In this document: piece by piece, positions 8,692-59,105 of the stretch | How positions within the stretch are numbered: the first letter of the stretch is position 1 | Layout of the letters: every line of letters starts with the position of its first letter | Assembly: GCA_965645245.1 (NCBI GenBank) | Contig: OZ287070.1 | Coordinates: 2,852,001-2,916,000, forward strand | Length of the DNA: 64,000 nucleotides | Origin: Massalongia carnosa | Lineage: Eukaryota | Reading direction: 5' to 3' | Program-made: the position numbers and the translations under genes | Notes under the pieces: model-generated | Told to the model about the DNA's origin: nothing | Database searches by the model: none | The model's input: the letters and a program-made list of their open reading frames with translations, nothing else

Positions 8692-8934
8692 TTTGCGTTA
8701 AAACATTCGAATTCGTAACGAAGTCGCCAATGAGGCGTTTGCGGACTGGATCGGGAAAATGTCCTATGTGTCATGGAGTGACTGGGCACCTGCCAGTTAG
8801 TTCATTGAACCAACCTTAGCTGCTTGAACGAAGCACTAGCCGGCTAGCCGATCCGAAAGGAACTAAGCTTAATCCGGTTTAGTCAGGTCAAAGGTAAGTG
8901 TTCCGGCTGAAGGTATGTGTTCGGACTGTCAATA

Positions 8935-10869: not shown

Positions 10870-11116
10870 TAGTGTCATAGCGATAGTTTCATGCCAGGGA
10901 CTTGGGAAATTGGATCAACGGCTGGATTGGGACTGGTTCCGTTCGCCAGAGTCTTATACTCGCCCACGTTGGATTTTCTGTTTCTTTTCTCCTTGTCGAA
11001 CGTCTTGTCCACCTAGCTAGACAATCAAGTAATACGTTTGCACCATCTGAATTTCTACCTGACCTCGCACCGTGACACTACGTTCGACCAGCCTATTCAC
11101 CTGGTGCATCATCATC

Positions 11117-31775: not shown

Positions 31776-32731
31776 CTACTGTCATGAAATCGAACCAACC
31801 CGATCCAGAATCAATCCCGCAGATGAATCTGACTAAGCTCCCGTTCCTCTATTCAGCTTAGTCAGAATCTCAATAACTAAATCGAGTTTAGACCCCTCTC
31901 AACGGCTTCAGGTCAAAGCTGTACCATCACCATCAAAGCGTATCAACGACAGGAGAACCTCATCTCCACCTTTTATCGTCAAACACCTCGTCAAACCTTC
32001 GTGCCGTACGTCTCCTAATAGGGGGAGATGAACACTGATCGAATCTTCATGCAAAGGGGTTCGAGACAAATATAAAAGAAAGGACAAGTTAATTAGATAG
32101 TTGACTCCGTGTCCGACGTCTTGTATAGCAATCCATCACCTAGCTATAGCCTTATTAATAAAGACATCTTGATCACCCAATCCAATTCCTAGGAACATTA
32201 GTTCAATCCCCTGCCCAGTCCTTGACACACCCTGATACAAGCGACCGAAATTTTGCATGGCATGGGTGAGATGGTGATAACTTTCTGTTCGTGAAAATCG
32301 AGCCGAAAGCGCATGATTGTCGTTGAAAACGAGCTCGTAGTCCTCGCATTTTCCCTCTCAAGTGAAGTCACGATTTTTCCCGCTAAAGGATCCAGAGGTT
32401 TTTTTTTGAGACTGTCAACTTTTGATCTTGAAGCTGACTTCACATTTGCCTGTAGCGCCCGCAATTTACGAGCACGGACGACTTCACAACGAAAACTGAC
32501 AGTCTCGACGAAAAAACTGACAGTCTCAACGAATTTTTTACGAAACTCGTTTAAAACGAGCCAAAAATTACTCGCAGCAGCAAATTACTCCACCCAAAAC
32601 TTTTCTTACTCGCATACCCCTATTTTCTTACTCCTATAACCCCCATTTTCTTTCGATACTGAATAACCTCATAAGTCAATGCATATATCTGGTCAATCAA
32701 CTGCGACGTTTTCATATTCAGAATTGCAGTA

Positions 32732-41470: not shown

Positions 41471-42033
41471 GGAAATTATTTCTTGATTTTAAGAGGCATA
41501 TTTCGATTGAAAAGAGTAAGTTCACGACGAGTTTTAATATAACAAACGTTATCAAATAAATAAGTTGACGAAAAAAATTAACAATCATGTCGTTGGCTTA
41601 AAACAAATGTTTGCTTGCAAGAACAAGCGTTGTTTCTTAGTGTCAAATATTTTCACATTTCTTATGTTACACGTCGAGCTCGTTTCTTCCTTGTTTATTT
41701 ATCACGTTTTGATTATCAATTATTTTTAAATTTCGAGACCCTCAATATGAACTCGTCACAGCAAGAGGATTTTGTGTTGTCTTCTGATTTTCAGTCTATA
41801 ATTGATGCACAACTAGATGAATTAGATCAAGACGAAATAAACGAAGATTTTCAAGAACAAAGCTCAACAACAGCTGCGGAAGAGGATTTAGATTCTGAAA
41901 ACCATATCGATTTACCTTTAGATATGCTACGCAAAGCTTCTGAGGGTGCTCATGCCAAAAGTACACTGGCGGGATACAAAGGGTATTATTCTTTATGAAT
42001 ATGCTCTTTAATAAAGAGCACGTTTAAACTATA

Positions 42034-44597
42034 ATCGTCGGCTCGCTTACCTCCGGGATCCGACCTGAAAAAATGTCGACCGCATTTTAGTCGGGGAAAG
42101 CGGTTGCATCCCGGAAAGCGGTTGCATCCCCCCAAATTCAAATTTCTTCATCTTTTTAATCATTGACCAACAACCACATTGATTAAAAATCAGCCGATAC
42201 CGTACATAGCTTGAAAATCATCGCCGTCATCATCACCGTCGTCAAAATCATTGCCCTTGACTCCCCTGACCCCCTGACCCTCGTGATTCTCCGCTTACTC
42301 CGCATACCCCGCATACCCCGCATTCTAACAATCATTCGCATCTCCTGGTTGAAAAGATGCTTCCGAATCGAATTCTTTCAATGATTCTTCCAAATCGAAA
42401 GATACGAAATCCTCTCGTAGCCATGTTTCTCCTTCTGGAAGATCTGGAAGGATTGAATTATCTCCATGACCAGTGCTATCTACGATAAACGTGACATCTT
42501 CCTCATTGACATTGGCACGCGGATTCTTTCTAATTTCCTTCTTCGCTTCCTCAGCTATCCATACCTCATTCGTGGCCTTCCATAATGCCTCGGGGTCAGG
42601 AATCTTCTCATACATCTTAATTGGAATGGGACCGAGCATTTTCTGCATTTCTTTCAGCTGTTTAACTCGATCTCTTTCTGCTTTTCGAGCAGCCAATCCC
42701 TTGACATGCATTTCGTCTCTTTCTATTCGCCATAGCTTCATGAAGCTATTATTCGCTCGTTTCTCCTCAGCCTCTTGATCCTGTTGTAGTCTGATGGCTA
42801 TAGCCTGCTTTGCATCTTCCGCTGTGATTCCCAATCTTCCGGTTTCTGGTCTCAGACGTTTACGAGACATTCGTCTGTTATTTAACTGACTTCTTCTTGA
42901 TTCTCGATGCATTTCCAGCTCCATGCCATCGATAATTGCATTCGAAACAACTTCATTTGTATTGTCTACAAATGAGTCCCATTCCTCAGCCCGAGCGGGA
43001 TCACTCCATTGCATGGATTTTCTGATTTTCGGTCCCCATTGACTCAAACCATACTCAATGTCAGCTACTTTTGTCGGTTGGATTTGACGAGGTAGGGGTA
43101 GAGGTAATGAGGGCTCATTATTCAGACTGTTTAATGAATCATTGGGATCATTGGGATTGAAATTTTTCAGCTGACGAATGCATGCCTTTGGATCAATCGG
43201 CCACATTCCCGACTTTTCAAATGCATGCCGAATCGTAGAAGTCTTGAATGTATGATTTCTGATTTTAGTCAAGTCCTGTATAAATTGAGACAGAGAATAC
43301 TCGACAAATGACGACGCAACGACTTCCTCAATAGCTTTGCAATGCCAATGCTTATAAGGCTGAAATACGCCCACATCCAATGGTTGCATGCAATGAGTTA
43401 AATGCGGTATAAAGGGAAAGGGTCGAATGCGATTCTCATTGGCCAAAAGTGAAAATTCAGGGGTTGTATGACTGCCATGATTATCCATCAGCAATAATTG
43501 CCATTCCGCATCAGGTCCTGCATTTGTATGTTTGATAAGATGCTTCAAATATTCAATTGCTATCTTATCAGATGTAAAACCACTGTTCGAGGGCACGACA
43601 TACGTGCCCTCGGGCACACCTTCTAAAAACCATGTGGCCATGATGTCATGACCCTGTACGATGATCATTAGAGGGGGGGGATAGTCGCCGGCAGCATTGA
43701 TAGTCTCAATAACTGTCGCAGATATGCGATTTTCCGGGCTGACGGCGTAGAATTGTTTGATTTCCTCAGGAACAATAATTTCCTGACCCCTCATGCATCC
43801 AACCCGAAAACCAGCTTCATCAAAGTTCAAAATGTTCCGACTTTTTCGAATTTTCAACTCTTTTAACACCTCTCTATACCTTTCAAACCATTCTATCACA
43901 TCTGATTCTTGGGCAGCTTCATAACGAATCATTGCTAGTGGTTTTGTCTTTATTTTATGAAGTTTGTTACATTTCCACCAGCTCCGAAACCATCTTCTTG
44001 ACGGGCCTACCTCGAGGGGGTTATGGGCCTTTTTCAGACTTACAATAGCCTTGAAAACCATCTGTTGTGTAGGAATAATTCCATGCATCAATAAGGACTT
44101 AATAAAGCCAGTAATTGACCTTGCCTCATGCTCCCTCAGTATCTGATTTTGTCCTCCATTTTTCCTCCCTTCTGGTCGACGAATGGAAGACGTCAAAGTT
44201 TTGACGTTGATATTGTAGATTCTAGCTGCAGTCGTTTTACTTTCTTTGGGATGATTTGTCAGAAATTCCTTCGCCTTTTCCAATCTTTCCATGGGGTTGA
44301 GAGTGGAGACAAGGGAGGCGTCGTTATCCATGATACGAAAGGGGAGATTGGTTTGGGGGATTGATTCGAGAGGAAAGAATTTGAATTGATGATCAGTTGG
44401 GTCGGAGAAATAATTTTCAAGCTAAGTACGGTATCAGCTGATTTTTAATCAATGTGGTTGTTGGTCAATAATCAAAAAGGTGAAGAAATTTGAATTTGGG
44501 GGGATGCAACCGCTTTCCGGGATGCAACCGCTTTCCCCGACTAAAATGCGGTCGACATTTTTTCAAGTCGGATCCCGGAGGTAAGCGAGCCGACGAT
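42034..44597 (-). mobile_element. Fot1/pogo-like DNA transposon (pogo-2) inside intron 1 of the YR-like gene
   Basis: About 185-bp imperfect TIRs (42034-42218 and 44413-44597); TA TSD at 42032-42033 and 44598-44599. Confidence 0.95.
42325..44331 (-). CDS. pogo/Fot1 transposase (DD35D), intact
   Basis: 668 aa; NFDEAGF, LMDNHGSH, QPLDVG. Confidence 0.94.
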   Translation of the reverse strand: MDNDASLVSTLNPMERLEKAKEFLTNHPKESKTTAARIYNINVKTLTSSIRRPEGRKNGGQNQILREHEARSITGFIKSLLMHGIIPTQQMVFKAIVSLKKAHNPLEVGPSRRWFRSWWKCNKLHKIKTKPLAMIRYEAAQESDVIEWFERYREVLKELKIRKSRNILNFDEAGFRVGCMRGQEIIVPEEIKQFYAVSPENRISATVIETINAAGDYPPPLMIIVQGHDIMATWFLEGVPEGTYVVPSNSGFTSDKIAIEYLKHLIKHTNAGPDAEWQLLLMDNHGSHTTPEFSLLANENRIRPFPFIPHLTHCMQPLDVGVFQPYKHWHCKAIEEVVASSFVEYSLSQFIQDLTKIRNHTFKTSTIRHAFEKSGMWPIDPKACIRQLKNFNPNDPNDSLNSLNNEPSLPLPLPRQIQPTKVADIEYGLSQWGPKIRKSMQWSDPARAEEWDSFVDNTNEVVSNAIIDGMELEMHRESRRSQLNNRRMSRKRLRPETGRLGITAEDAKQAIAIRLQQDQEAEEKRANNSFMKLWRIERDEMHVKGLAARKAERDRVKQLKEMQKMLGPIPIKMYEKIPDPEALWKATNEVWIAEEAKKEIRKNPRANVNEEDVTFIVDSTGHGDNSILPDLPEGETWLREDFVSFDLEESLKEFDSEASFQPGDANDC

Positions 44598-44915
44598 TAG
44601 AGCATCTGTTAATAAATGAATATAGTCAATGGAAGATGTTTTCATCCTGGGTCAAGGATAATTTTTCTAAACATGAGATATCTGTGTTATATCCAGACAA
44701 AAATACTCCATATTTGATAGCTTATTGGACTTATCAAAATTGTAATACTCCTGAATCTGTTGAGTAAATGCATTATTCTTATATATTAATGAGCTCGTTT
44801 TTAATGAACCTGTTAGTAATAAAAACTCAATACTTGCTATTCCTCAAGATAAGTCATGGTCACATGCATATAAAATGCGCTCCGTATGCAATTAGAGGTA
44901 TGCACACAGCATAGA

Positions 44916-45309
44916 TGTCAAGGAATGGGCAGGGGATTGAACTAATGTTCCTAGGAATTGGATTGGGTGATCAAGATGTCTTTATTAATAAGGCTATAGC
45001 TAGGTGATGGATTGCTATACAAGACGTCGGACAAGGAGTCAACTATCTAATTAACTTGTCCTTCCTTTTATATTTGTCTCGAACCCCTTTGCATGAAGAT
45101 TCGATCAGTATTCATCTCCCCCTATTAGGAGACGTACGGCACGAAGGTTTGACGAGGTGTTTCACGATAAAAGGTGGAGATGAGGTTCTCCTGTCGTTGG
45201 TACGCTTTGATGGTGATGGTACAGCTTTGACCTGAAGCCGTTGAGAGGGGTCTAAACTCGATTTAGTTAATGAGATTCAGACTAAGCTGAATAGAGGAAC
45301 GGGAGCTTA
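44916..45309 (-). mobile_element. Truncated Gypsy-2-family LTR (inverted copy; first ~50 bp missing)
   Basis: Near-identical reverse complement of about 17899-18292; it stops at the AcademH-like TIR. Confidence 0.93.
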
Positions 45310-45924
45310 GTTGCCTCAGTACCTCAGACGTGCGTGGCTCTATGAGCCGGCTAAGCCCCTCCGGGTTAGCCTATTTTCGCTAAGCCCCTTCGGGTTAGCG
45401 TCGCTAATTCCCTTCGGGTTAGCGGCCCTTTAGCTGACTACGCATGCTACGGGCGGCACGTCTGAGCGCAAAACTCTGTATTTTTGTCAGATCCGGCTTA
45501 TTTTGGTGCGCGCTCATACAAATTTTTGGCTTAACCTCAAAAATCATCAAGAATCAAGTTGACGGCGGAATCAACAACGCGCAACGACATTTCATAAATT
45601 ATGTAATAATAGAAATGATGCTTTGATATACATTCTATCGATTAATCAATATTTTAATTACATATCGATGCAAAATTGAGTCGCAATATCGATCTCGCGA
45701 CGAGGACTCGACTTTGACTCGAAATTTCGACACCACCACAGCAGACTCAACGGGTCACTAGCTCCAGTTTTTCATTGTCGGCGCTTCTGATCATTAATCT
45801 GATCCTCCGAGCGTTGTTTTCGAAAGCCTAAAATCGTTGAATGTGATGAACTTGCTTGATGTGCGTTTTGCGGGCTAAGAATCCAACTCGCGAATCGTCG
45901 AATATCGCTCGCGAACACATCGAA

Positions 45925-48100
45925 ATGGACGATCCTATAGCGTCGATAACTCGCGAGCAGGTGACGACCGTGATTTTAAGTAAATTCGGCTTTTATCCAA
46001 AGAATGAGCAAGTTGACGCTATCATGACTTTAGCACAAGATCAAAAGGATCTGATTTTTATCGCCAAGACTGGATTTGGAAAGAGTATTGTCTTTCAAGC
46101 TATGCCATTAATGTTCTCTTGTCTTAAGATCGCTTTAATTATCATGCCTCTCAAGACCTTAGAAGCTCAACAGTGCAAGAAATTGAGCGTTATCGAGGGA
46201 TGCAAGCCTTTCGTGTTGGACGGTGATAGTAATAATTCTTCTAATTTAAAGTTAATTCGTGAAAACAATTATACGCATGGTGTGTATTCAAATTATGATT
46301 GAGATAAATATAAAAACTTACTCGTTAATATGAATAGTTTTTACTAGCCCAGAGATAGCGACGTCAAAGCTGTTTAATCAGGAGGTTCTGAGGCATCCAA
46401 GTTTCTTCTTGAATTTATGTCTTTTAGCTCTTGATGAGATGCATCTTGTATCCGAATGGCGAGATTTCCGGCCCGAATACTTCAATCTCGGTGTGCTTCG
46501 TACACGATTACCAGATGGTATTCCTTTTCTGGGTGCGTCTGCAACGCTGGATCCAAGAACCCTAGAGAGCGTTAAAGATCGCTGTGGCTTTGATAACGAA
46601 AGTACTGTTATTCAAACAGCGCTTGATCGTCCAGAGATATACATACAGACAAGCAGTCTACAGCGGCCTATGAACAGCATGATCGATCTTCAACATCTTT
46701 TACCAACACGGGCTGAGAGTCCTTTTGATATTCCGAAAACGATTATCTTCATGGATTCAATTTCATCTATCAAAAAGGCGTGTGCGCTAATGAAAGTATG
46801 GATGAATCAATTGTCCTATCCAATTGAGGCTGCTAGTTGGGTCGCGCCTTTCTTTTCCGACATGGCCACCCAAGACAAAGAAAGGATTGCGGCTCGCTTC
46901 GAAATGCCCTCGAATCAATGTAAATTTCCTCGAATCCTGATCGCAACGGATGCATACGGGCTTGGTATTGATAATCCAGACGTTATGAGAGTTACGCAAT
47001 GGCTGCTACCCTCGTCAATGGCGAAGCTATACCAACGTTTAGGTCGTGCTTTGCGTTGCAGTCGAGGACAGGCGCATTTTACTCTTTTGCATCCTTCTTG
47101 GTGCATGGGTCCAAGAAGCGGATCAAAAATGGACGAACAGGACGGATATGACGCGGGAATCGAGATTGAATCCAAGGCCAGTAAACGCCGCATCAATCAA
47201 AAGGATGCTGATCGGCGACGAGATATGCCACCGGGTCTTTGGGAGATAATCAATGTGCCTTCAGATGGTTGCGTTCGAGGTATTGGCTTGAATTTCTTCA
47301 ATGATAAAGTGTATCCAACGTCGGCCTATGTTAAGCCGCAACCTTGCTGTTCAATTTGCGATCCAAGTTTTCAGACATCAACAGCCGCCAATGAGATGTT
47401 AAATAGAACGGCCGAGCGTGACTCGTCTAGGCGGCCTTGGTTCACCCTTAAACTTCGAGAATGGAGGGAGGCCAAGGCGCAGGAAAAGTTCCCAAATTCA
47501 CATATGCGATACTTCCCATCATTGATAATGCCCGATGAGGTACTGAATTCTTTGACCACTTGGGCGGATCAGATTGTGGACGAGCCCACCATGCGGCGAT
47601 GGATTGGTAACACATGGACTGGTATTAGGCCCTACGGCGCCGAGCTTTTAGAAATTTTAAAGCGGGGTCAAGCAATGAGATTAGACGAGGGAGACATGTT
47701 CGAGGAATGGAAACGACACAACGACATAAAGAGAAAACGATTACCCAGCCTAACATGCAACTCCGCCAGTATTGAATTTGAGGAACGGAGGAAAAACTGG
47801 ATGATCAAACAAGGATATATGTCGAGAAAGGTTTTTAAAAAGCGAAATGCGGTCAAGAAGAAAGTCTCGAAGGAAAGCGAGAGCACGGAGCCATCGGGCG
47901 AGAATCCTGCGCCTAATCACAATATCTCCGATGCGGCGCTCGTTGTTGACAATGTTGATGCTCTTAAATCATCGATGAAGGCATCAAAGACCAAAAAAGC
48001 GCCTCGAGATCCTATGGAAGCGTTGTCGCTGAATGTACCCATGGCCCTTCCTCCGACACGATCTAGACAAGAAAGAAAGTGCCCCGTCCGCTACCTCTGA
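45925..48100 (+). CDS. RecQ-like SF2 helicase, about 705 aa (intron 46280-46337)
   Basis: AKTGFGKS, IMPLKTL, FTSPE (created by splicing), DEMH, SAT, ATDAYGLGID, QRLGRALR, a Cys cluster (CVR..CCSIC) and an HRDC-like LREWR segment. Confidence 0.9.
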
Positions 48101-48159
48101 CTCTGTAAAGCCGCGCGGCGCGGATTTACATGACTAGGCTATCTCGTGGTATCGATGAT

Positions 48160-50838
48160 TTAATCAAAAAACATACCGCCGGATATCTCGAGACGGGCCA
48201 TTGAAATGACAGGGCTGTCGGGGACCTGCTTTGTTTCATTGACAAAATCGGGCTCGGCTTCATACTTACCCTCAAGGTCGTCTGTTGAAATTTCTTTTGA
48301 AATTTCTTCGGAAAGATACTGCTGATTGTATTTTAATACATTTTCTCCAAGTTTCTTCAATCCCTCAACATAAAGATTAGCTGTTGGATTAGTTGAAAAT
48401 CGATCATAGCTTCTTTTACAGAGTGATTTATGCGCTAGTGCCGTAGCCATGCCCCACACATCCTCTGCGGCCGATTTTGCTGGATGCCTTGAAGAGTTGA
48501 CTCTTCCAAAGTAAAACTCAACGATTTCTTTGAGCTTCATAAGATATGGACCGTTGAGTGCCCAGTTCTCGAGCAAGGTGTCACTATACTTTGAAAAATA
48601 AGATCGCTCGTGCTGGAACGTCTTGAGGTTATTGTTTAGTATCTCTAAAAGCCGATCAGTCTCAAAACTCGATTCTTCGTCACCGCGTAAATTGACAAGA
48701 CTATTCATTAAAATACTTTCCTGTAGCCTTATGGTCGCTGCGGAAGAATCAATCGCATGAAGGGTGTATAGAAGAGCTTGCGCATATTTCGGGGTGCCAG
48801 CTACGCTTGCCTGAAAGATCACCGTTGCGTGGCGCAATGCGTGACGAAGTAGTCCAATATCCGCATATTTGATTGCGTATCGAAGTGTTAGATACGATTC
48901 AACGTGATCACAGAAGTTCTGATGATTCTGAAATTGTTGATCAAGCGTTGGAGGAAGCATATCTATTGACGTTGAGGGTAATTCCGCGTGAAGTTTGCGA
49001 GATATCCTGCCCAACATATTCATCCAGGTGCCATCCTGCCCGCAAGTCTGCGCTGTGAGCCACGAAATAGTTGCTTCGATTCGCTGCGGAGCATATCCAT
49101 CCTTTCGTAAAAACCTAATCCACGTCCCAACGATTCTAGCTTGATAGCTCTGAATGATCAGATCCTCTAAGGCCTGGAAATCGTTCGGCTGCACGACACG
49201 AGCGCGGCCCCACCGATCGGCGGCATATTGAAGAGTCGAAGGATCAACCGGCTGGGCCTCTCCCCAATGTATTTTATGAATAAGCTGCAGCATGTTAAAG
49301 CGAAGATGCCATAACCCTAATCCCGGTAAAATCCAGTCGAACCGATCGAAAGATTGCTCCGATATCCCACGACGTAATTCCTTGACAGATTGCATTCTCG
49401 ACCATGTCTTGAGGTCACCATAGATAAGCCGAATGACGCTCGCAAACGTCGAGTCATCCTCCTTGAACTTGAACTGTCGCACAAATATATCCTCCAATAT
49501 TTGAATATTATTAGATGTTGTGCTCTCATCCTTCATGACTGGTTTGATAGGAATGTAATTGGTCTTGTATTTTTTCATCTTATTCAGCACGGGCATTGCA
49601 GTCGACCAAGGAAGTTGAACGTCGCCGATCTCTGGGCCATATAGCGCTCGAATCGCTGACTCTAGATGATGAAGACGAATCTAGGTACGCGGTGCATTAG
49701 CGATTGAGCGCGGTATATACACCTCGTCCTGTATTGAACTCACCTGCATCTCGAGATCACCAGTCTCCAGCTTTCGCGCAATTCTTTCAGCTGATAAAAG
49801 ATGCGTGGCGGGGCGCCACATATCCTGCCTCAAAGCGCCGGCATCGAATCCTTGCCCCTGGAAAATTAGAGCGGTAGTGATTGATCTGACGTCTCTATTA
49901 TCCCCCGTGCGCTCTCCTCGTTTACCTTCTGCGAAGTCAAAGTTATCGTATGTCAAGATCATGTTTGAGCCTTGTCCTAGCATCTGAACCTTTCGTTCGG
50001 CCTCCTTAATCAAGGACAACATGCGCCGCTGCAGGGTAGTATATGACATCGTCAGGTCAAAATGACAGAGTGTATCTAGAACTCGCCGCCTCGCCCCACC
50101 TTGATAAATATAAAGGCCTAAGACGGACTGAATATTGGTCGCCTTATTTGGTCGCAATTTGTGACAAAGCATTGCCAATATAACGGTGTGCCGGCCGCTG
50201 GGAGAATCCAACGTCACATCGAGAGCTTCCTGCGGGCGAGCCTCGCGACAAACACTATCAATTAGCTCAAGCCATCGTGGCGCCAACTGCTTGGCGGCAG
50301 ATGCAGCAAGTTTAATAGCCTCCAAGGTCCCAAACTCGACTGTCGCAGAGGGCGGCTGGAAAGGGCCAAAGGCTGCGTGATCTGCCAAAGCTTTGATTTC
50401 TTCACGAAGCACATCCGCGGCCCAAACCCATCCTCTCTCGCGAAGGATAGTGGATATTCTACCAGGCCCAATGAGGCTTGAAAAGTCTTCTTGCCGCACA
50501 ATATCGACATAGACAAAATCGAAGAGCTGGCCTTGCGCCTTTCGCATACTATGACGGGCTCGATTCTTACAAAGTGTTGATAAAAAATCTTTTACCGACC
50601 AATTTAGAGAGCTCAGAAATTTAAGCACCTCAACCAGCTTGTCGTAATCTGATATGCGCCGGCGGTGGCGTTTCGCGCCTCCATTTTTTTCAGGTAAGGC
50701 AGGAGGGGAGGAGGAAGAGGGTGAGCTATCATTACTGCCTGACGGCGATGGGTGGGGCCGCTTGAGCGCACCGGCGGGAGTCAAGGGACTTGTCCGTAGG
50801 TCGGTAAGTGGCGAGGAGGGGCCCCCGACAAGAGCCAT
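48160..50838 (-). CDS. Academ-type DDE transposase, about 871 aa (intron 49681-49743)
   Basis: A GTGAGT..GCTAAT..TAG intron joins the two ORFs in frame. Motifs TYDNFDF, IYGDLKT, LGLWHLRFN and ETDRLLE are candidate D, D, H and E. Confidence 0.8.
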
Positions 50839-51309
50839 GGCTTTCGTCAGATAGCTTCAATCTAGATAAATCATACAATACCATTGATTGGCCGTCGTTA
50901 TTCATATCATCATGATCTTTGTAACTCAATGTAATCGCGCCACATGAAAATAATCAGTTCATCAACCTCAAAATTGAGCGAATGCGAACAATTTATCACT
51001 TAATCGACTTTCACATCGCTTTTCTTAGCCTGACAGTAGTTATAACACATGCTTATCGAGTCATCCATCTTGAGAGGTGCGTTTTTGGTATAAAATACAG
51101 TCTCTTGTAAACTAATACGACCCTAATCATTGTATTAAATCCATAAAAGGAATGGTTGCACTGCTAAAATTTTTATTACGCGGATCTGGCCGTAATTTTG
51201 AGTTTTGCGCTCAGACGTGCTATCGCACTGATGTTAGTCAGCAGCGACGCTAACCCGGAGGGGCTTAGCCGGCTCATTGAGCCACGCACGTCTGAGGTAC
51301 TGAGGCAAC

Positions 51310-51735
51310 CGGGTGACTGATAATCCGGATGCTTAGTCATGATAAGGCGGATAGCAATACTAAGCCATCAGCAATCAGCCTGTTAGGCAGCAACTGAAGC
51401 TATTCAGAAGCCTCGATCTCATGGGAGGCCTGGGACGCCTAGGAGACCTCAGCTGAAGGCAACAAGGCTATCTGCTAGACCTCAGCTGAAGGCAACAAGG
51501 TTATCTGCTAGACCTCAGCTGAAGGCAGCAAGGCTATCTCCTAGACCTCAGCTAAAGGCAACAAGGCAGACAGGTAACCAGACAAGTAGTTAGTAAATAG
51601 GACCCCAAGGGGTATATAGAAAGCTCGATTCCCATCTTCAGGGAATCAGCTTTTAGCTTTAGCACCTACCAATCTATTAGCAGTCACACTGAGCATTATA
51701 ACCCATAAGGACTAGTGTCTACTGTCCCTCTTATA
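51310..51735 (+). mobile_element. Truncated LTR-like fragment of a different family
   Basis: Internal tandem repeats and TATATA near 51613; it ends where the YR-like coding sequence resumes; no 5' TG end. Confidence 0.55.
51444..51567 (+). repeat. 33-bp tandem repeat, about 3.8 copies
   Basis: Unit AGACCTCAGCTGAAGGCAACAAGGCTATCTGCT. Confidence 0.92.
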
Positions 51736-52004
51736 GTCTCAAAGTTATGATACTTTGATAATCGTTCGTTATTTAATGAATTGGAACGACGTTCCTACAA
51801 GACGACGAGATTATTTCATGAATCTGGAAGCATAGATCGGAGTAAAATGTTCTTATTGTGGTCGAGCTTGCGATTGTGCATAAAGAACTCCTTAAATACT
51901 AGTTCATGAGCTCGAATAATGAACACCAGGAGGATGATTTCAATCTGTTCTATAATGATAAAAAGTTAAGTGCTCATTTAGATAAACTCTTTTCACCCGA
52001 AATC

Positions 52005-52674
52005 CTACTCCTCATCATCATCCTCCCCCCCTCCCTCCTCTTCACCCTCCTCCTCACTCCTCTCCTCCTCCTCACGTTCCTCCTCTCTCATCTCCTTATC
52101 CTCACTGAAAGGATCGGACAACACTTTCTCAAAAAGTGGATCATCACTTTCGCCCAGTTTAGTCAAAAGAGCGACAGCAGCATCCACCCTTTCGCCTCTA
52201 CTAGCAATCTAAATTCGATTAAAACGAGTTCGTTTATAATGAGCATGTTCGGATGATTTACTTTTCTATAAGACTATTTACCCAGTATGGCCTCAAAAAG
52301 ACGAACACAATGCTCTTGTCGACCTCTAAGAGTCAACTGCTCTTGCGCAACTTTCTATAAACATTAAATATTAGGTCGAGCTCATATATAACGAGTATAT
52401 ATTAACGATTTTACTTTGGTTTTGGCATTTGAAATGATTTGCATCTCGAACATTCATTGTTCGAGCATAGACGCACCATGAGCACATCCGCAAGGCAAGA
52501 GATCGACCTTGTCTAAGCCCAACGGAATATTCTCGCCCTTAGGCATCTCCTGCATTCGTTTTAAACGAGCTCATCCGTAACAACAATCATCATTTATAAC
52601 GAGCTCATACCTTTTGTGACCGATAATATCTATGACATCGGGCATAGCCCGGATTCTGTCTCCAGAATTTCGCC
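52005..52674 (-). pseudogene. 3' part of a multi-intron gene of unknown function with an acidic tail (gene C)
   Basis: Three short GT-AG introns (about 52553-52611, 52357-52414, 52210-52262); exons include KFWRQNPGYARCHRYY and LLPCGCAH; Glu/Asp tail; in-frame stops; cut by the Gypsy-4 LTR. Confidence 0.55.
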
Positions 52675-53067
52675 TGTTATGATCTACCTAGAGACTAGTC
52701 ATAGGGACACTAGAAACGAATACAATCAAGATGAAGAAGAAAAGATCAATTGAAAGACAAATCTCGCTCCTATATAGTCCAGCGGCCCCTAGCCCTCGAC
52801 CGACTCGTGGAAGGATCTAGAAGGTTCGAGTATTGACCAGCTATGGAAACCGTTAATGCCGCGATGAGTCTAGCGCGCACACGCGATCCCGTGATGTGAG
52901 GGATAAAACGAGTTCAATTTCAATAGCCTAGTTCTACACCAAAATCTTCAGACGAAGTCTAAAAGCTTTACTCGGGCGGAGTTCTATATAACCCATGAAA
53001 AGTTGGTTCCTCGGCACATTACCTAATCGATGCTAGTCTGATGTCAGGTGACCTCAGGACCCTGACA

Positions 53068-56000
53068 CTACCCCTCCTCTGAGACGGCGGCTCCGGACGT
53101 CGATGGTTGACTGTTATTCATGAATAGGACATCCTTTGGGGCGTTGGGTTTTCCTTTATTGTCTGTATGAAATTTTCTGATTTCTTCTTTGGCGCGAATG
53201 AAATCAGTCCATGGCTGCCAAGGTGGGTTTGCGTTCCAGTCATCCCATGAGCCGATATAGGTTGCTTTATACTGAGTGCCGTATTTCTTAGTTTCACGGC
53301 AGTCGACGATTTCGAGGACTTCATATTCTTCATGAGGACTGGATTCGGCGTCTTCTTGAATCAGTATCGGGGGACCCGGTTCAATAAGTTGACCGGGGAA
53401 TGGGTTCGTAGGAGTCAGATGAAGTTTCCATGGATGAAATATGGGTGTGAGCCCCACTCTTTTCAAGTTTTCGGGAATTTCCAATTCATAGGCCTTGTTA
53501 TCTATGTTTCGGATGATTTTCCATGGCCCCGCGTTTTTGGAACTCAGGGAGCGACTCTGCTTGTCGACGGAGAAATCTTTGGTGTTGACATATACCATGT
53601 CTCCTATCTTGTAGTCTGGATGTGGGGCCCGCGACTCATTGGCATATCTCATCTGATCATCCTGTGCCCAGGTTAGGTGCTCGATAAGCCATTTCGTCAT
53701 GGCTTCTTGTCGGGCGGTTATTTTGTCTGCCGACATCAGTTCCGCGCGTCCGGTGACATTTGAGTCAAAAGGCTGAGGCGGCTCCGAGCCACTACGAGGG
53801 TGATAACCGTGATCAGCGAAGAAGGGGGACATTCCGGTTGAAGCGTTCGTATGATTATTGACTGCAAATTCGGCATCTGGTAAGTAGTCCACCCAGTCGT
53901 CTTGAGCATGTCTGACGTATGCTCTCAGGTAGTTCTTCATAACCTTATTCGCATTTTCGGTTTGACCATCTGTTTCTGGATGATGCGCGGAGGACGGTTT
54001 CGATTTGACTCCTAATCGCTGACAAATTCGCTTCCACAGATGGGCTGTCAATTGCGTCCCGCGATCGTGGACGATGGAGTTTGGCAAGCCGTATGTTGAA
54101 AAGACCCGACGTTTGAGGACTTCTAGTACGTCCTTCGTGCCTATATCCACCATAGGTTCGTACAACCTACGTTTGGTCAATCTGTCCACGATAACCAAGA
54201 TATTTTCGTACGTCCGGCCCCGTCTGTGACATTTGGGCAGTTTGACTACAAAGTCCAGAGATAAGTCTGTCCATTTTCTTTGAGGTATGGGTAGTGGGGC
54301 TAATAGTCCCTGTTTCTGATCGTTGTACACCTTGGACCTTCGGCATGTAGAGCAGTTAGTAGCGTATCTTCGACAATCATCCTTCATGGACATCCAGAAA
54401 TAGTTCTCCAGCATTTTGGCATACATGCCTCGATACCCGGGGTGTCCTTGCATCGGGGGATTATGATGATCCGATAAAAGACGCAGCTTCAGCTTGTCGA
54501 AATTCGCAATGAAGAGGCGTGTTTTGTAGTATAGTCTTTCGTGACGGACTTCCAAGTCACCCATCGCCAGTCTCAGCCCGTTGCTTAGAATTTTATCGGG
54601 CAATTTCTTCAGATTTTCCAACTTAGCCTTCATGACTTCCTGAATCATTGCGTCTTCTTGATATGCCTCCGCTAAAAGATTTTCTAATAATTCATCAGGC
54701 TTTTCTGCATCCGAATCATCATTCGAATTGATTGTGAACTCCTCTACCGTCAAGTCCTCTACTTCCTCATCCCTGATTTGATCGGATGAGTCAGTAGTAA
54801 TGTTGTCTTCAACCCGTTCTCGATTGGCCATGGATCTGGTTGTCACGTACAGCTTCAGGTCCTGTTTCACTTCATCGTCCAGCTGATTTTCTTTTAGCAG
54901 CACCTGATATTGATATCTGGTGCGATCATCCTCCGCGTCCATCGGCAGATCTTGCTCTCTTCTGGTGAGGGCGTCCGGTTTGCCCCCTTGCTTGCCTGGT
55001 CTATACATAATGCGAAAATTATATTCCGCCAGCATCTCAGCCCAACGCACTTGACGGCGATTTAGTTGTTTCAAAGTCATGAAGGTCTCCAGATTCTTAT
55101 GATCTGAGTAGACCATTGTTGATTGCTCCACTCCCGCTAGCTCCGGTCTCCACATGACGAAACTTTCTACGATGGCTAGGAGTTCTTTATCGTAGATCTC
55201 ATAATTGCATTCGGCGGGGCTCATCTTCTTCGAGAAACAAGCCACGGGTTTCAGAACGCCTTCATGCATCTGAGAGAGTATCCCCGATACTACGAAGTCA
55301 GATGCGTCTGTCTCCACCCAGGTCTCTAGCCTTGGGTCGTAATGAGCAAGAATCGGCGCAGAGGTAAAAGAAATCTTCATGTCTTCGAAAGCTTGCTGAC
55401 ATTCAGTGGTCCACACGAAGTCTTGATACTTGGTGCGTCTCTTTCCGCCTTTCGTGACATATTGCTCTCCGCGGGTTAGCTCGGTCAGACACTTCACCTT
55501 TTCGGAGAATCGCTCAATGAAGCGACGATAGAAGTTAGCGAATCCAAGAAAGGACTGCACCTCTTTTACTGACGCGGGCGTCTTCCATTCTAGTCTGGCC
55601 GTCACCTTTTCTGGGTCCATTCTAACGCCATTCACCCCCACGAACATTCCGAGGTATTTGACTTCGGAGACAGAGAATTCACACTTGTCTATGTCCAGTT
55701 GAAGTCCTCTTTCTTTCAGACGACGAAGTACCTTCAGTACCTGCTCGATGTGCTCCGTTTCTGTTTCACTGAACACCAGTACGTCGTCCAGATAGGCGGT
55801 GACGAAATAATCTAAGTATTCTCGCAGGGAGTTATTGATATAGCTCTGAAATGTTGATGGAGCGTTGCATAGTCCGAAGGGCATCACAAGATATTCAAAT
55901 TGACCGTATCGAGTATTGAACGCCGTGAGCCACTCTTGTCCCTCTTTAATCCTCATCCTATTGAATGCATGAATGACGTCCAATTTAGTAAACCACTTTG

Positions 56001-57136
56001 CTTTGGCGAGTTTCGCCAATGTCTCGCTGATCAATGGAATGGGGTATCGACTTTTCTCCGTGATATTATTCAGATCTCGATAATCTACGCAAAAGCGAAG
56101 ACCCCCGCCTGGTTTCCTGACCAATAGTACCGGCGCGGCCGCCTTTGACGAGCTCGGACGAATAAACCCTTTTGCTAAGTGCTCATCTAGATATTTTCTT
56201 ACCGCGGTCAATTCCTGTTCGGACATGGGCCGATAATTCTTGATGAACGGGGGCTCGATCCCGGGCATCAAATTGATTTCGTGATCCTCTTTTCGATGAG
56301 CTGCCAACTCGTCTGCCTTAGCCCTCATGAAGACTTCAATCTCGCCATGATAGGCCTCGGGTACTCGTTTTTTCAATTCTTCCAGAGTATACTCGACTTT
56401 GTCTTTCATGAACTTCTCATGATCGTCGCTGGTGACTGCGTTGATACTTGAAGCAGTCAGAAGCTTCTTCTCGTACCTATCTAACTTCTTGTTGAGCTTT
56501 TCCCTCGGATAGAAACAGTAAGTCTGATGACCCGATCTTCGAAGAAGTTTCATAAATCGCTTCGGGGTGAGGGACTGAATATCGAAATTTTCAAAGGCCT
56601 CGTTCTTTGCTGAGGCAGTCGTTTCCTTCTCCAAGATTGTGGATTCAAATTTTGAGACTGAATGAGATCGAGGTGCGCATCCCTTACTGACGCACCGATT
56701 GGAGAACGTCATGGTGCGTTCAACCCAATCAATGTGAGGGTTATGCTCCTGCAGCCATCCATCACCGATGATCAAGGTATGATTACCTATGTCGGCCAGA
56801 TAGCAGAATAACTTTTCCTCATGATCTCCGATTCTGACGGGAACGATAACGGCCTTATCAATGATTTGATGGACTTTTCCATCCCCAAGTTCCAGTCTGA
56901 CCCTGTCTTTTTTTTAGTCTAATGGTCTCTAGTTTTCTTTTGCGCGCAAAGGATTCATGAAGAAATTGAGCTTCACTTCCGTTATCGATCATCAACTGAT
57001 TTTCATTAGAGGCTATACTACATCTAAATAAAAGATGCTTGCCCGGAACGAGATGATCGACAGAAAGAACAGATGCTCTAACAACCCTTAATGAAACTTC
57101 TCGACATTCCTGATGGCGACTATCATCAGGAATCAT
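53068..57136 (-). CDS. pol: Gypsy-3 Pol (PR, RT, RH, IN, chromodomain); one frameshift in an A-run near 56910
   Basis: MIDNGSE protease motif; 1235-aa ORF with YLDD, ETDASD, IN, GPWKI and EYEVLEIVD chromodomain. Confidence 0.92.
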
Positions 57137-58725
57137 TCTTTTTCCGAGTCCTCGGACTCGGATGTGTCTTCTCGAATGGCGACTCTACTGAGATTCACTG
57201 CTTGCCTAATGCAACAGGGGTCTCGGCCCCTATGCCATGATCCTCTGCACGACCAACATCGGCCCTGTCGTGACAGAGTCTCTCGTTCCCCGTCCTCCAA
57301 CTTGGGCGGGTGAAGCGTCCCCTCGTACCAAGCTCCTACCCATCCTTCCGGTTTGGTCGAGACCTGTCCGAATTTCGAGTTCGGGTTGGCGGAGATGGCG
57401 GAGTTGGTCGTAGTCGCTTTTGGTTTGACTGTGATCGAGGTACTGGAGGTGGCGGTCGTGGTTTTGTTTAAACCACAACCGACGGAAGAAGAAGGAGAAG
57501 TCGTCGTTTTCGCGGGCTTCTGAGATTCCGACTTCGCGTACTTCTGATTCATCTCCTTTCTTCCCTGTTCGATTTTCCTGGCTTCATGCAAGAGGGTTTC
57601 TAGACTGATGAAGTCCCGTCCCAATAGAGACAGCGCGATGTTTGGCCGCAGGGTGTCCTTGAACGTCTCAATTCTCTCATTCGCGGGGGTTTTTGCACGT
57701 TGCCAGAGTTTGAACATTCGATGATAGTATTCAGTCACCGTTTCATCTTTGTTCATGCTTATTTCTTTCAATTCCTTCTTCGCGTCCTTTGTCAAATATG
57801 CTATCCCGAGATAGCTCTCAATTTCCTTGAAGAACGTATTCAAAGAGAGAGTGGGACCGGCATCCACTACCCAGGTGTGTATGGCGTCGAAAATGGGATC
57901 CTTCATCTGCGATAAGGCGTAGTCGATTTTCAACTCCTCACTAGTGTACATTGGGGAGTCGGTTCTGATTTTTCTTTCCACCGTAAACGCCCATGCACTA
58001 TAGGCGTCTGAGTTGGAACCGTCGAGGGCCTCCTTCGGGTTGGTGCCTTTGGGTCGATAATTGCTTAAGGGGGCAGCGACGGCGGATTGATCTTCAGTTT
58101 GACCAGTCGATGAGGTCGACGTCTGAGTAGCTTCGCGAGCTAGACGTTTCATCTCTGATATTTCACGAATGAGGTCCGAGTTTTCCGCTTTGACCTTCTG
58201 AGTCTCCAATTTTTCAGCCGCGATATCCTCCTCAAATACTAGTCTCTCGTGATCCCAGCTCTTTATCATTCGGGTCCATTCTGCCTGTAGACCTTTTAGA
58301 TCTTTGTTTCTTTTTTTCAAGTCCTGATATTTCTCGATCAAGACCTCATGTTGTAGGAGCGTGCCGGCTAGAACAGTGTACCATATGTCGCCGTCTCCCT
58401 TTAGGACGAGGGCCCTTCTCAACTCTTCTCGATTGGCCACCTTGATGATCATAGCTGATTTCGACGGATTGCTTTCCGTCAGACTTCGATAAATGGCATA
58501 ATTGCTTATGTCGATTTTCGGTTCTGAGGTCGGGGCCTCGATCTTCGGTTCCCTGCCTTTGTCTTTGTTTGTCGGCAAAACAGTGTCATTTCCCACCTCT
58601 TCGTCGGCGGGTTCATATTCGCCTGGTATGCTCTGTGTCGATTTTCGCGACATGGAGCGAGCTCTAGTGTTGAAGGCCAGCCCCGAGGGAGCGACATCTC
58701 TGCTGGATGATTCTAATGAGTTCAT
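57133..58725 (-). CDS. gag: Gypsy-3 Gag
   Basis: 530 aa directly after the 5' LTR; CWSCRGSWHRGRDPCC knuckle. Confidence 0.9.
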   Translation of the reverse strand: MNSLESSSRDVAPSGLAFNTRARSMSRKSTQSIPGEYEPADEEVGNDTVLPTNKDKGREPKIEAPTSEPKIDISNYAIYRSLTESNPSKSAMIIKVANREELRRALVLKGDGDIWYTVLAGTLLQHEVLIEKYQDLKKRNKDLKGLQAEWTRMIKSWDHERLVFEEDIAAEKLETQKVKAENSDLIREISEMKRLAREATQTSTSSTGQTEDQSAVAAPLSNYRPKGTNPKEALDGSNSDAYSAWAFTVERKIRTDSPMYTSEELKIDYALSQMKDPIFDAIHTWVVDAGPTLSLNTFFKEIESYLGIAYLTKDAKKELKEISMNKDETVTEYYHRMFKLWQRAKTPANERIETFKDTLRPNIALSLLGRDFISLETLLHEARKIEQGRKEMNQKYAKSESQKPAKTTTSPSSSVGCGLNKTTTATSSTSITVKPKATTTNSAISANPNSKFGQVSTKPEGWVGAWYEGTLHPPKLEDGERETLSRQGRCWSCRGSWHRGRDPCCIRQAVNLSRVAIREDTSESEDSEKE

Positions 58726-59105
58726 GTTTTCTGATTAGCCTAATGATTCTGATTGTAGGTCTGAAGATTGTGTGAGGGATAAAACGAGTTCAATTTCAAT
58801 AGCCTAGTTCTACACCAAAATCTTCAGACGAAGTCTAAAAGCTTTACTCGGGCGGAGTTCTATATAACCCCTGAAAAGTCGGTTCCTCGGCACATTACCT
58901 AATCGATGCTAGTCTGATGTCAGGTGACCTCAGGACCCTGACACGTGACTTCGGCTTGTGGCTTGTTCCGCTCCGGTCTACCGAAGTAGTGCCGAGTAGA
59001 ACCGTGACACTACCCCACGCTTTAGATCGCGAGTCACTTGACCGCGATAATGTCCGCGTTATCTCCGCTTAATCTGAGACTAAGTGACCGATGCGATTAG
59101 TGCGA

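Follow-up and report, generated by a model that had tools for sequence, protein, structure and literature searches.

Results

Gene content and layout

The window analysed here, a stretch of 64,000 nucleotides of the Massalongia carnosa genome, contains a 6,000-bp segment which is enclosed by terminal inverted repeats (TIRs) and carries two convergent genes, one for a RecQ-like helicase on the plus strand and one for a transposase on the minus strand (Table 1). A preliminary description of this DNA had claimed an element of 6000 bp with 61-bp TIRs, and both figures were borne out. The helicase gene is made up of two stop-to-stop open reading frames (45850–46302 and 46334–48100); after splicing, it codes for 705 residues if translation starts at ATG 45925, and for 727 residues if it starts at the earlier in-frame ATG 45859. 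The transposase reading frames (49681–50856 and 48160–49680) give a spliced protein of 871 residues from ATG 50838. The stop codons of helicase (48098–48100) and transposase (48160–48162) face each other tail to tail.

The predicted introns, both of the GT..AG type, are supported by comparison with relatives. The spliced 871-aa protein is colinear across its junction with the 838-aa relative P0048 (residues 39–834 versus 35–808). In the helicase relative P0219 (62% identical), 19 additional residues sit precisely at helicase junction 118/119 and resemble an intron left unspliced; five other helicase relatives align directly through this junction. The two convergent genes with one short intron each and the 59 bp between their stop codons, as described previously, thus agree with our analysis. 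The same holds for the DExH motif (DEMH in the helicase), for the DN, GD, H and E motifs of the 871-aa protein, and for the absence of coding lesions: both genes are open and contain all catalytic and ATPase motifs.

Table 1. Coordinates of the element, its genes and its adjacent sequence within the window
Feature	Position	Strand	Remarks
Incomplete LTR copy, outside the element	44915..45311	-	LTR of ~449 bp; abuts left TIR
Whole element	45310..51309	.	6,000 bp exactly, TIR to TIR
Left TIR, 61 nt	45310..45370	+	60/61 versus right arm
Left subterminal region	45323..45466	.	11-mers, palindromic units, single-strand folding
Helicase exon 1, 118 codons plus one base	45925..46279	+	RecQ motif 0, Walker A (AKTGFGKS); Pfam DEAD 2.1e-7
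Helicase intron, 58 nt	46280..46337	+	GTGTGT...ATAG (GT..AG); insertion of P0219 at same site
Helicase exon 2, including TGA stop	46338..48100	+	DEMH, SAT, motif VI (QRLGRALR), Cys4 cluster, helical C-terminal region, then disordered tail
Inter-stop spacer, 59 bp	48101..48159	.	Contains small GC-rich hairpin (z -3.2)
Transposase exon 2, including stop	48160..49680	-	DUF6589 2.3e-62; D454, H490, D707, E711
Candidate catalytic Glu, E711 (in DRLLE)	48643-48645	-	Profile match, conservation
Candidate second catalytic Asp, D454 (in GD)	49414-49416	-	Profile match, conservation
Transposase intron, 63 nt	49681..49743	-	GTGAGT...CTAG; in-frame stop at intron end
Transposase exon 1, 365 aa	49744..50838	-	Ser/Pro-rich start, basic KRHRRR stretch, helical N-terminal region, YDNFD block
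Candidate first catalytic Asp, D298 (in YDNFD)	49945-49947	-	Profile match, conservation
Right subterminal region	51210..51296	.	11-mers, palindromic unit, single-strand folding
Right TIR, 61 nt	51249..51309	-	60/61 versus left arm

Ends and flanks of the element

The TIR arms are 98% complementary, with one mismatch and 5,878 nt between them; a BLAST comparison of the element with the window recovered the pair at E=5e-24 and found no second copy of the element within the 64 kb. At the left end, the 11-mer CTCAGACGTGC occurs in two inverted copies (45323–45333, plus strand; 45456–45466, minus strand), between which a 21-nt palindromic unit is present three times (45350–45370, 45379–45399, 45403–45423). 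The right end likewise has two inverted copies of the 11-mer (51210–51220, plus; 51286–51296, minus), but only a single palindromic unit (51249–51269). All four exact occurrences of the 11-mer in the 64 kb are located in the element ends, and none of 100 shuffles reached this number. Folded as single-stranded DNA, positions 45320–45469 gave -41.9 kcal/mol (z -6.1) and positions 51205–51309 gave -27.3 kcal/mol (z -4.4), values which in both cases were equalled by none of 200 shuffles. The 11-mers and palindromic units are candidate binding sites of the transposase.

The preliminary description had expected a target-site duplication (TSD) of 9–10 bp, which is absent from this copy: CGGGAGCTTA and CGGGTGACTG are identical at 6/10 positions. 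A TSD of 3–4 bp was not found at the flanks either (CTTA versus CGGG, 0/4), nor was TTAA at the ends. The LTR truncated at the left TIR is also located at 17844–18292 and 31779–32227 of the window. Because the 53 bp missing from the truncated LTR were not found on the right side of the element, left and right flank do not make up a single target; the flanks have demonstrably been rearranged at one junction or more, unless two copies recombined to form the present one. As the flanks are rearranged, the lack of a TSD neither confirms nor refutes an assignment to AcademH. The element is nested among other mobile elements of this fungal genome, and 18 of the 23 long open reading frames in the window have transposon or retrotransposon domains.

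The transposase

The 871-aa minus-strand protein is a transposase with a DUF6589 core, its sole Pfam match. All 57 matches to exon 2 carry PF20231. For exon 1, 373 relatives were found at E<=1e-3, and a similar N-terminal part is fused to DUF6589 in one chain in 10 of 12 long proteins checked. THAP, KDZ, hAT, MULE or other transposase Pfam domains were not detected at E<=0.1, and Pfam gave no XPG nuclease domain in either protein of the element.

For a comparison with Academ, we used the profile RNase_H_Academ (44 sequences, 465 positions) from the supplement of PMC5751038 (Muszewska et al. 2017), of which 160 positions (1–40, 143–194, 220–245 and 424–465) were compared by eye and summed by hand without gap costs. 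Four blocks correspond: f-D-N-w-D (2–6) to Y297-D-N-F-D301, g-D (190–191; an earlier anchor had predicted 192) to G453-D454, g-f-f-H (220–223) to G487-L-W-H490, and D-e-a-l-E (450–454) to D707-R-L-L-E711. They fall in profile order, at the expected spacing and on the most conserved positions (D3, N4, D6, H223, D450, E454); one block lay within 1 position of its prior prediction, another within 4. Further agreements are G-K (17–18), T..Q (24–30) and Y-x-P (151–153). Over 39 aligned positions the emission values total 42.9 bits, a hand-made sum and not the result of a full hmmsearch. Among the positions compared, the conserved P9 of the profile is missing from the transposase, and the stretch from D298 to Y407 is about 42 residues shorter than in the profile. 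The similarity to RNase H-like Academ transposases, on which the preliminary description had made its reading depend, was thus found in these four blocks. The span of 414 residues from D298 to E711 fits the 465-position Academ profile and exceeds the full length of all others in the same supplement file (KDZ 339, Dada 304, Kolobok 273, Sola2 218, Zator 212, Sola3 131, Sola1 124).

In an alignment of 106 relatives, D298 and N299 are each conserved in 59/61 sequences, D454 in 53/60, D707 in 52/56 and E711 in 56/57. The centre of the protein is of the RNase H-like DDE type, with D298, D454 and E711 as candidate catalytic residues and a long helical insertion separating D454 from E711.

The fold was modelled for the 33%-identical relative P0048 in place of the window's own protein (pLDDT 87.3, pTM 0.82). 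In this model, the equivalent of D298 is located in strand 297–308, that of D454 just past strand 434–440, and that of E711 in helix 685–702. Each of the best 10 PDB matches was either a DDE transposase or RAG1 (P element, Hermes, RAG1, Transib), headed by the P element at 4.9e-3 (probability 0.99). These matches are weak (E 5e-3 to 4e-2, TM-scores 0.15–0.34), with none at E<=1e-3; the model supports a DDE transposase fold with a helical insertion domain for P0048, at weak resemblance. P element, hAT (Hermes) and Transib/RAG1 share an RNase H-like DDE core with a large helical insertion domain ahead of the catalytic Glu. However, the transposase has no sequence-level Pfam match to any of them, and those systems lack the helicase partner present here.

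The helicase

The plus-strand gene encodes a RecQ-like SF2 helicase of 705 aa with all ATPase motifs intact and a RecQ-type cluster of four cysteines. Its best 37 PDB sequence matches are all RecQ-type (E 3.3e-16 to 1.7e-9), and all 18 PDB matches of exon 1 are WRN or BLM. A search with the structural model (pLDDT 82.8) listed 50 matches, all of them RecQ, BLM, WRN or RECQL5 (best 2.9e-14). With the cellular enzymes (E. coli RecQ, WRN, BLM, RECQ1, RECQ5) it has in common motif 0, Walker A, DExH, SAT and motif VI, as well as the cysteine cluster after the second RecA-like domain (C311, C336, C337 and C340, conserved to 90% or more among 58 relatives). In contrast to them, it is only 15–24% identical in structural alignment, shows no significant Pfam match to RecQ_Zn_bind, RQC or HRDC, contains a low-confidence insertion of about 60 residues ahead of the cysteines, ends in a helical region plus about 75 disordered residues matching no Pfam family, and is encoded within a transposon.

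Relatives and linkage of the two genes

In relatives, a shared contig for transposase and helicase was deduced from equal contig size: between 57 transposase and 79 helicase matches, 11 contigs agree in size, against a chance expectation of about 0.46 (P ~3e-12). Both genes thus appear to lie on one contig in 11 more distant relatives. Five of these contigs are element-sized (5.5–6.3 kb), and the identities of transposase and helicase relatives to the window co-vary (Spearman 0.91). At 90% identity, the transposase clusters contain 72 member sequences and the helicase clusters 43. Near-identical protein copies exist elsewhere (3/478, 4/553 and 2/136 residues differ), as does a degraded copy, P0035, which matches over 179 aa at 96.6% and diverges afterwards. 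The nearest named relatives of both genes belong to the lichen-forming Lecanoromycetes (ascomycetes).

Discussion

Assignment to AcademH

The element is very probably a DNA transposon of the cut-and-paste type, autonomous in appearance and belonging to the AcademH lineage within the Academ superfamily. The earlier proposal of an AcademH element with a transposase and a RecQ-like helicase is supported by the profile blocks, the fold of the relative, the RecQ-like partner, the lack of XPG and the linkage in relatives; every testable part of it held except the TSD. With AcademH (Kojima 2020, Mob DNA 11:15, as cited in PMC10799480 and PMC10045372) the element has in common a DDE transposase containing DNxD, GD, H and DxxxE blocks, an SF2 RecQ-like helicase encoded by a gene of its own within the TIRs, a fungal host and an apparently low copy number. 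Its length of about 6 kb is similar to the mean of curated bivalve Academ elements (5,565 bp; PMC10294476). According to PMC10799480, AcademH ranges over animals and fungi, ascomycetes included (citing Kojima 2020), which agrees with the occurrence of DUF6589 clusters in Arthropoda, Basidiomycota and Mucoromycota. Two features differ: the 9–10 bp TSD, which defines AcademH insertions in passages citing Kojima 2020 (PMC10799480, PMC10045372), is not visible at this copy, and those passages do not name the Lecanoromycetes for AcademH. AcademX, which has a TSD of 3–4 bp and in which the Academ transposase forms a fusion with an XPG nuclease, shares the transposase profile family, whereas the present element has a helicase gene instead of XPG.

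We consider it unlikely that this is a DDE-plus-helicase element of another or undescribed superfamily, either a sister of Academ or a KolobokH element sharing only short catalytic motifs. The Academ match does consist of four short blocks in one profile compared in part, Pfam names the core only DUF6589, our literature search found no link of DUF6589 or PF20231 to Academ, and the expected TSD is missing. However, the order of the blocks on the most conserved profile positions, their closeness to prior predictions, the additional agreements, the lack of other transposase Pfam matches and the taxonomic range of DUF6589 all favour Academ. KolobokH is listed alongside AcademH as a helicase-bearing lineage (PMC10799480), but the Asp-to-Glu span does not fit the Kolobok core and the ends are without TTAA.

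That we are dealing with a true AcademH copy which can no longer move by itself, being rearranged or recombinant and owing its intact reading frames to youth only, is quite improbable. Both TIRs are complete, none of the four 11-mers deviates, the two genes remain open and keep every catalytic and ATPase motif, and a rearranged flank outside the TIRs does not put a cut-and-paste element out of action; these points outweigh the missing TSD, the LTR cut at the left end without its remainder on the right, the unequal numbers of 21-nt units and the existence of the degraded P0035. A host gene pair, in which a domesticated transposase would neighbour a cellular RecQ paralogue, is highly improbable: the TIRs and repeated subterminal motifs enclose the pair exactly, the neighbourhood is filled with transposons, the pair recurs in 11 diverged relatives (paired by equal contig size) on small, roughly element-sized contigs, the 90%-identity clusters have 72 (transposase) and 43 (helicase) members, and the resemblance of the helicase to cellular RecQ is distant (19–24% identity in fold alignments), without significant HRDC or RQC match. 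For such a pair speak the intactness of both genes, their introns, which host genes also have, and the frequency of AcademH-type helicase domains in candidate host-transposon fusions of fungi (PMC10799480).

Proposed mechanism and significance

In this element, the transposase would bind the 11-mers and palindromic units that recur in the structured ends of about 150–190 bp, pair the ends, excise the element and link its 3' ends to a target cut in staggered fashion. As a co-inherited accessory, the helicase would work either at the element's ends or on a transposition intermediate; it might open or resolve the palindrome-rich ends, or process the gapped product. It is plausible that the present copy can be active; recent activity is likely, because the copy is structurally intact and the family has near-identical copies.

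The element provides evidence for DUF6589 as the core of Academ transposases. It is a further member of the known but little studied AcademH type, and offers a clean test object for the role of the helicase.

Structure of the element

The element, which the preliminary description had annotated as AcademH-like, is exactly 6,000 bp long, as proposed there, and a BLAST search of the element against the window recovered its 61-nt terminal inverted repeats as a pair (E=5e-24). Its interior consists of four long stop-to-stop frames, which combine into two convergent genes, each with one short intron. Starting at ATG 45925, the helicase comprises 705 aa; an earlier in-frame ATG at position 45859 would extend it to 727 aa. 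The spliced transposase has 871 aa and the convergent stops are separated by 59 bp, so that the gene model of the preliminary description could be retained in all these respects. Its claim that coding lesions are absent was likewise borne out: both genes are open, the catalytic and ATPase motifs are all present, and the ends are complete.

Both introns are backed by alignments to relatives. The transposase intron ends with an in-frame TAG, and residues 39-834 of the spliced transposase align with residues 35-808 of the homologous protein P0048 (838 aa, Xanthocarpia lactea) at 33% identity, unbroken at the junction. Five of six other long relatives are colinear with the spliced protein; P0177, the remaining one, gives a two-part alignment whose second part begins about 170 residues later in P0177. 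On the helicase side, the relative P0219 (62% identical) has 19 additional residues precisely at junction 118/119, resembling an intron left unspliced at this position, and five other relatives align straight through this junction. The hairpin in the spacer between the two genes could serve the 3' ends of both transcripts.

Features of the putative AcademH element and its surroundings (window positions)
Feature	Position	Strand	Description
Terminal inverted repeats	45310-45370 / 51249-51309		60/61 identical (98% complementary), 5,878 nt between
Subterminal inverted block	45456-45495 / 51181-51220		40 nt, 83%
11-mer CTCAGACGTGC	45323, 45456, 51210, 51286	+, -, +, -	two opposed copies per end
Helicase frames	45850-46302 and 46334-48100	+	joined by 58-nt intron 46280-46337 (GTGTGT...ATAG)
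Transposase frames	50838-49744 and 49680-48163	-	joined by 63-nt intron 49743-49681 (GTGAGT...CTAG)
Helicase stop codon	48098-48100	+	
Transposase stop codon	48160-48162	-	
Spacer with hairpin	48101-48159		59 bp; hairpin GC-rich, core GCCGCGCGGCGCGG, -12.1 kcal/mol, z -3.2
Repeat pair 1	8768-8934 / 16200-16366		98.2%
Repeat pair 2	10870-11080 / 16365-16575		99.1%
Domains of gypsy framed by these pairs	11063-16188		gag (from 11063), RT, integrase, chromodomain (to 16188)
Pogo-like frame, same pairs	8994-10739		DDE_1
Gypsy-type retrotransposon	17844-32227		~449-bp LTRs 17844-18292 / 31779-32227, 98.4%
Copia-type element, nested in 17844-32227	22864-27521		gag, RVT_2
DDE_3 frame, nested in 17844-32227	30404-31639		
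Pogo/Fot1-like DNA transposon	42029-44602		193-bp inverted ends 42029-42221 / 44410-44602, 95.9%
Frame of pogo/Fot1-like element	42325-44421	-	698 aa, DDE_1 1.6e-12
Truncated third LTR copy	44915-45311		99.2% and 98.0% to 17844-18292 and 31779-32227
Stretch right of the element	51310-52894		sole other match in window: 104-bp piece at 8076-7974, 87.5%
Tandem repeat	51444-51567		33-bp unit, 3.8 copies, 93% match; one frame reads PQLKATRLSAR
Gypsy	52895-58944	-	174-bp direct repeats 52895-53068 / 58771-58944, 98.9%; open 1,281-aa pol frame (RT, RNase H, integrase)
Second gypsy	59106-62956		

The transposase and the Academ profile

Exon 2 of the transposase corresponds to the Pfam family DUF6589 (2.3e-62), and all 57 relatives found with it carry this domain (PF20231); those with names stem from the lichen fungi Teloschistes, Icmadophila and Xanthocarpia and, more distantly, from Fusarium. 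Exon 1 has no Pfam match; searching 1.84 billion representatives with it yielded 373 relatives at E<=1e-3. When 12 longer proteins were scanned, 10 proved to combine the N-terminal region with DUF6589 in a single chain. By sequence, a comparison of the transposase with PDB chains gave nothing beyond a chance match (E 0.39).

As a reference for Academ we used the RNase_H_Academ HMM (465 positions, 44 sequences) from the supplement of Muszewska et al. 2017 (PMC5751038), of which positions 1-40, 143-194, 220-245 and 424-465, 160 of the 465, were compared. The most conserved positions in this portion of the profile are D3, N4, D6, H223, D450 and E454. The profile blocks fDNwD, gD, gffH and DealE correspond to YDNFD (297-301), GD (453-454), GLWH (487-490) and DRLLE (707-711) of the transposase, and within the compared portion order and spacing agree. 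Further agreements concern G-K (profile positions 17-18), T..Q (24-30), Y-x-P (151-153), L229, I232 and K234. With Y407 anchored on profile position 151, the second aspartate was predicted at profile position 192 and found at 191, and the histidine was predicted at 227 and found at 223. Summed over 39 aligned positions, the printed emissions give 42.9 bits against the profile background, a value which ignores gaps and the other 305 positions and is an indication, not an E-value. Among 106 aligned relatives, the matched residues are 88-98% conserved (D298 in 59/61, N299 in 59/61, D454 in 53/60, D707 in 52/56, E711 in 56/57). At 414 aa, the distance from Asp to Glu is compatible with the Academ core of 465 positions and larger than any other profile in the same file (KDZ 339, Dada 304, Kolobok 273, Sola2 218, Zator 212, Sola3 131, Sola1 124). 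Judged by its sequence, the transposase matches the Academ RNase H-like DDE profile in its conserved blocks.

The fold was modelled on the full-length colinear relative P0048 in place of the window transposase (pLDDT 87.3, pTM 0.82). The equivalents of the three acidic residues are located in a strand (297-308), at the end of a strand (434-440), and in a helix (685-702), with a long helical insertion between the second and the third; in this respect the predicted structure is laid out like those of RNase H-like DDE enzymes. In a Foldseek search, no PDB structure matched the model at E<=1e-3. The top ten consist entirely of DDE transposases and RAG1, among them the P element (4.9e-3, probability 0.99), Hermes (8.3e-3), RAG1 (2e-2) and Transib (3.1e-2), with low TM-scores of 0.15-0.34. 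The modelled fold is consistent with an RNase H-like DDE core without being strong support for it. Profile blocks and fold both agree with the RNase H-like, Academ-type similarity that the preliminary description had presumed for the minus-strand protein.

The helicase

Pfam assigns DEAD to exon 1 (2.1e-7) and DEAD and Helicase_C to exon 2 (1.4e-4 and 2.8e-11) of the helicase. In a comparison with PDB sequences, the best 37 of 51 matches of exon 2 are all of RecQ type (3.3e-16 to 1.7e-9), headed by E. coli RecQ at 3.3e-16 and followed by WRN, RECQ5, RECQ1, BLM and, at 1.7e-9, RECQ4; DEAD-box proteins appear only from 1.6e-3 on. For exon 1, all 18 matches are WRN or BLM. The motifs are intact, namely Walker A AKTGFGKS (residue 47), DEMH (151), SAT (186) and QRLGRALR (351), and ahead of Walker A lies an FGF..P..Q stretch, which we take to be RecQ motif 0. 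Among 58 aligned relatives, C311, C336, C337 and C340 (exon-2 numbering) are conserved to at least 90%; from its position and from the RecQ motif, this cluster is presumably the RecQ zinc site. The Pfam family RecQ_Zn_bind gave no score on the helicase. The AlphaFold model of exon 2 (pLDDT 82.8, pTM 0.77) was matched by fold to RecQ family members in all 50 cases listed, best to the RecQ catalytic core 4tmu (2.9e-14). Given the SF2 motifs, motif 0, the DExH signature, the cysteine cluster and the modelled fold, the protein can be assigned to the RecQ family.

Canonical cellular RecQ enzymes possess the RQC winged-helix and HRDC domains, whereas the helicase of the element has no significant Pfam match to either. 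Its C-terminal 330 aa are predicted to be helical and then disordered, the disordered tail amounting to about 75 residues in the model. A divergent RQC-like part may nevertheless be present, because some fold alignments to RecQ cores reach approximately 450 columns.

Probable joint inheritance of the two genes

The helicase lies beside the transposase within the element; in relatives, co-location was judged from contigs of identical nucleotide size behind transposase and helicase matches. The 57 transposase and 79 helicase matches have 11 contig sizes in common (5535, 5611, 5685, 5918, 6339, 9456, 10167, 10605, 12760, 28673 and 95999), as compared to about 0.46 exact coincidences expected by chance from the density of near-misses (Poisson P ~3e-12). 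Over these 11 pairs, the identities of transposase and helicase to the window co-vary with a Spearman coefficient of 0.91. Five of the shared contigs measure 5.5-6.3 kb, close to the size of the element, which is what a repeat assembled alone would give. Because contig sizes are shared, we infer that the two genes have been passed on as a pair among relatives whose identity is as low as about 41% for the transposase and 31% for the helicase.

Element ends

All four occurrences of the 11-mer CTCAGACGTGC in the window fall inside the element; none of 100 shuffles reached four. A 21-nt palindromic unit is present three times at the left and once at the right end, and is absent elsewhere in the window. 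Folded as single-stranded DNA, each end adopts a branched structure that the 11-bp stem closes, with -41.9 kcal/mol (z -6.1) at the left and -27.3 kcal/mol (z -4.4) at the right end; in either case, none of 200 shuffles was as good. The 11-mers and the 21-nt units are candidate transposase-binding sites; speculatively, the structured ends might also be substrates of the helicase.

Flanks and genomic surroundings

The window forms a nest of transposons, with copia, gypsy, pogo/Tc1 or MULE-type domains in 18 of its 23 long ORFs. Long open frames are numerous among the retroelements and suggest that these were recently active and have undergone little repeat-induced point mutation. The arrangement at 8768-16575 suggests nested insertions. 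The pogo/Fot1-like transposon to the left of the element is apparently intact; directly to the right follows the 33-bp tandem repeat, and further on the two gypsy elements.

Adjoining the element on the left is the truncated third copy of the LTR, which breaks off at the element 53 bp before the LTR end. These 53 bp were not found to the right of the element, and an attempt to reconstruct the site before insertion with the help of the other two LTR copies failed on this account. The best local match to the missing part on the right side, GGA-GCTTAGTCA-GAT at 51327-51343, has 15/17 identical positions with two indels, and 7 of 500 shuffles reached this quality; it was too weak to justify moving the element boundary there, and homology is gone after five more bases. 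Between the immediate flanks CGGGAGCTTA and CGGGTGACTG, 6 of 10 bases are identical, and no repeat of 3-4 bp abuts the element ends. Since the missing 53 bp of the LTR do not lie on the right, the two flanks do not together make up a single target; this copy has either suffered a deletion after insertion or is a recombinant of two copies. For AcademH, a target-site duplication of 9-10 bp is given in a passage of PMC10045372. As they do not represent one split target, the flanks neither confirm nor refute a duplication of this length.

Copy number and age

A BLAST search with the element detected no second copy within the 64-kb window. Proteins nearly identical to those of the window exist elsewhere, differing in 3 of 478, 4 of 553 and 2 of 136 residues, and they belong to 90% clusters with 72 (transposase) and 43 (helicase) members, whose representatives lie on different megabase contigs. 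One ORF agrees over 179 aa at 96.6% before diverging and in this resembles a damaged copy. Together, these sequences point to a multi-copy family of young age, although the same picture could arise from several assemblies of one species.

Classification and significance

Among the alternatives to AcademH, the AcademX lineage is distinguished by an XPG nuclease fused to the transposase, whereas neither protein of the element contains one: the four exon translations gave no Pfam match to XPG at E<=0.1. Kolobok and KolobokH were compared by their features and rejected, as the flanks are not TTAA, a THAP match is missing, and the 414-aa span exceeds the Kolobok profile. KDZ/Plavaka, hAT, MULE, CACTA, PIF, piggyBac and Tc1-mariner were discarded because DUF6589 is the only Pfam match of the transposase at E<=0.1. 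The AcademH reading of the preliminary description is supported. According to Kojima 2020, as cited in a passage of PMC10799480, low-copy AcademH elements have already been reported from Basidiomycota, Ascomycota and Mucoromycota; the data support the element as a new member of this published lineage. Equating DUF6589 with the core of the Academ transposase may be a step not yet published: in the literature searched we found no link of DUF6589 or PF20231 to Academ, although one may exist in bioRxiv supplements or Repbase reports.

We know of no AcademH element whose mechanism, including the role of the helicase, has been established. Judging from the anatomy of the element and from related enzymes, the transposase would bind the repeated end motifs and cleave by DDE chemistry, and the helicase would act on structured ends or intermediates. 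A comprehensive reading, which we regard as possible but rather short of probable, is that DUF6589 is the catalytic core of Academ, that the family is a currently active AcademH of lichen-forming ascomycetes whose two genes co-diverged as a unit, and that its RecQ-like helicase has its natural substrate in the palindrome-rich, cruciform-prone ends of the element itself.

The preliminary description had warned that the helicase could pass as a host RecQ gene, and the JGI label of its relatives, "superfamily II DNA helicase RecQ", illustrates this risk. According to a passage in PMC10799480, such helicases feed lists of supposed host-transposon fusions. The element is an annotation warning for host RecQ calls. 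In rust fungi, a passage in a preprint (bioRxiv 10.1101/2025.10.24.684071) speculates that DUF6589 proteins may be virulence factors or epigenetic regulators; our results suggest that the proteins treated there are Academ transposases, a transposase origin being the simpler reading.

The analysis ties the uncharacterised Pfam family DUF6589 to a transposase. With open genes, all motifs, complete ends and two short introns, the element is a ready template for transposition assays with and without the helicase. If the comprehensive reading is true, the helicase would have a testable role, namely opening or resolving structured ends for synapsis and cutting by the transposase, and the many fungal and animal "DUF6589 domain-containing proteins" would not be host factors but Academ transposases or remnants of them.
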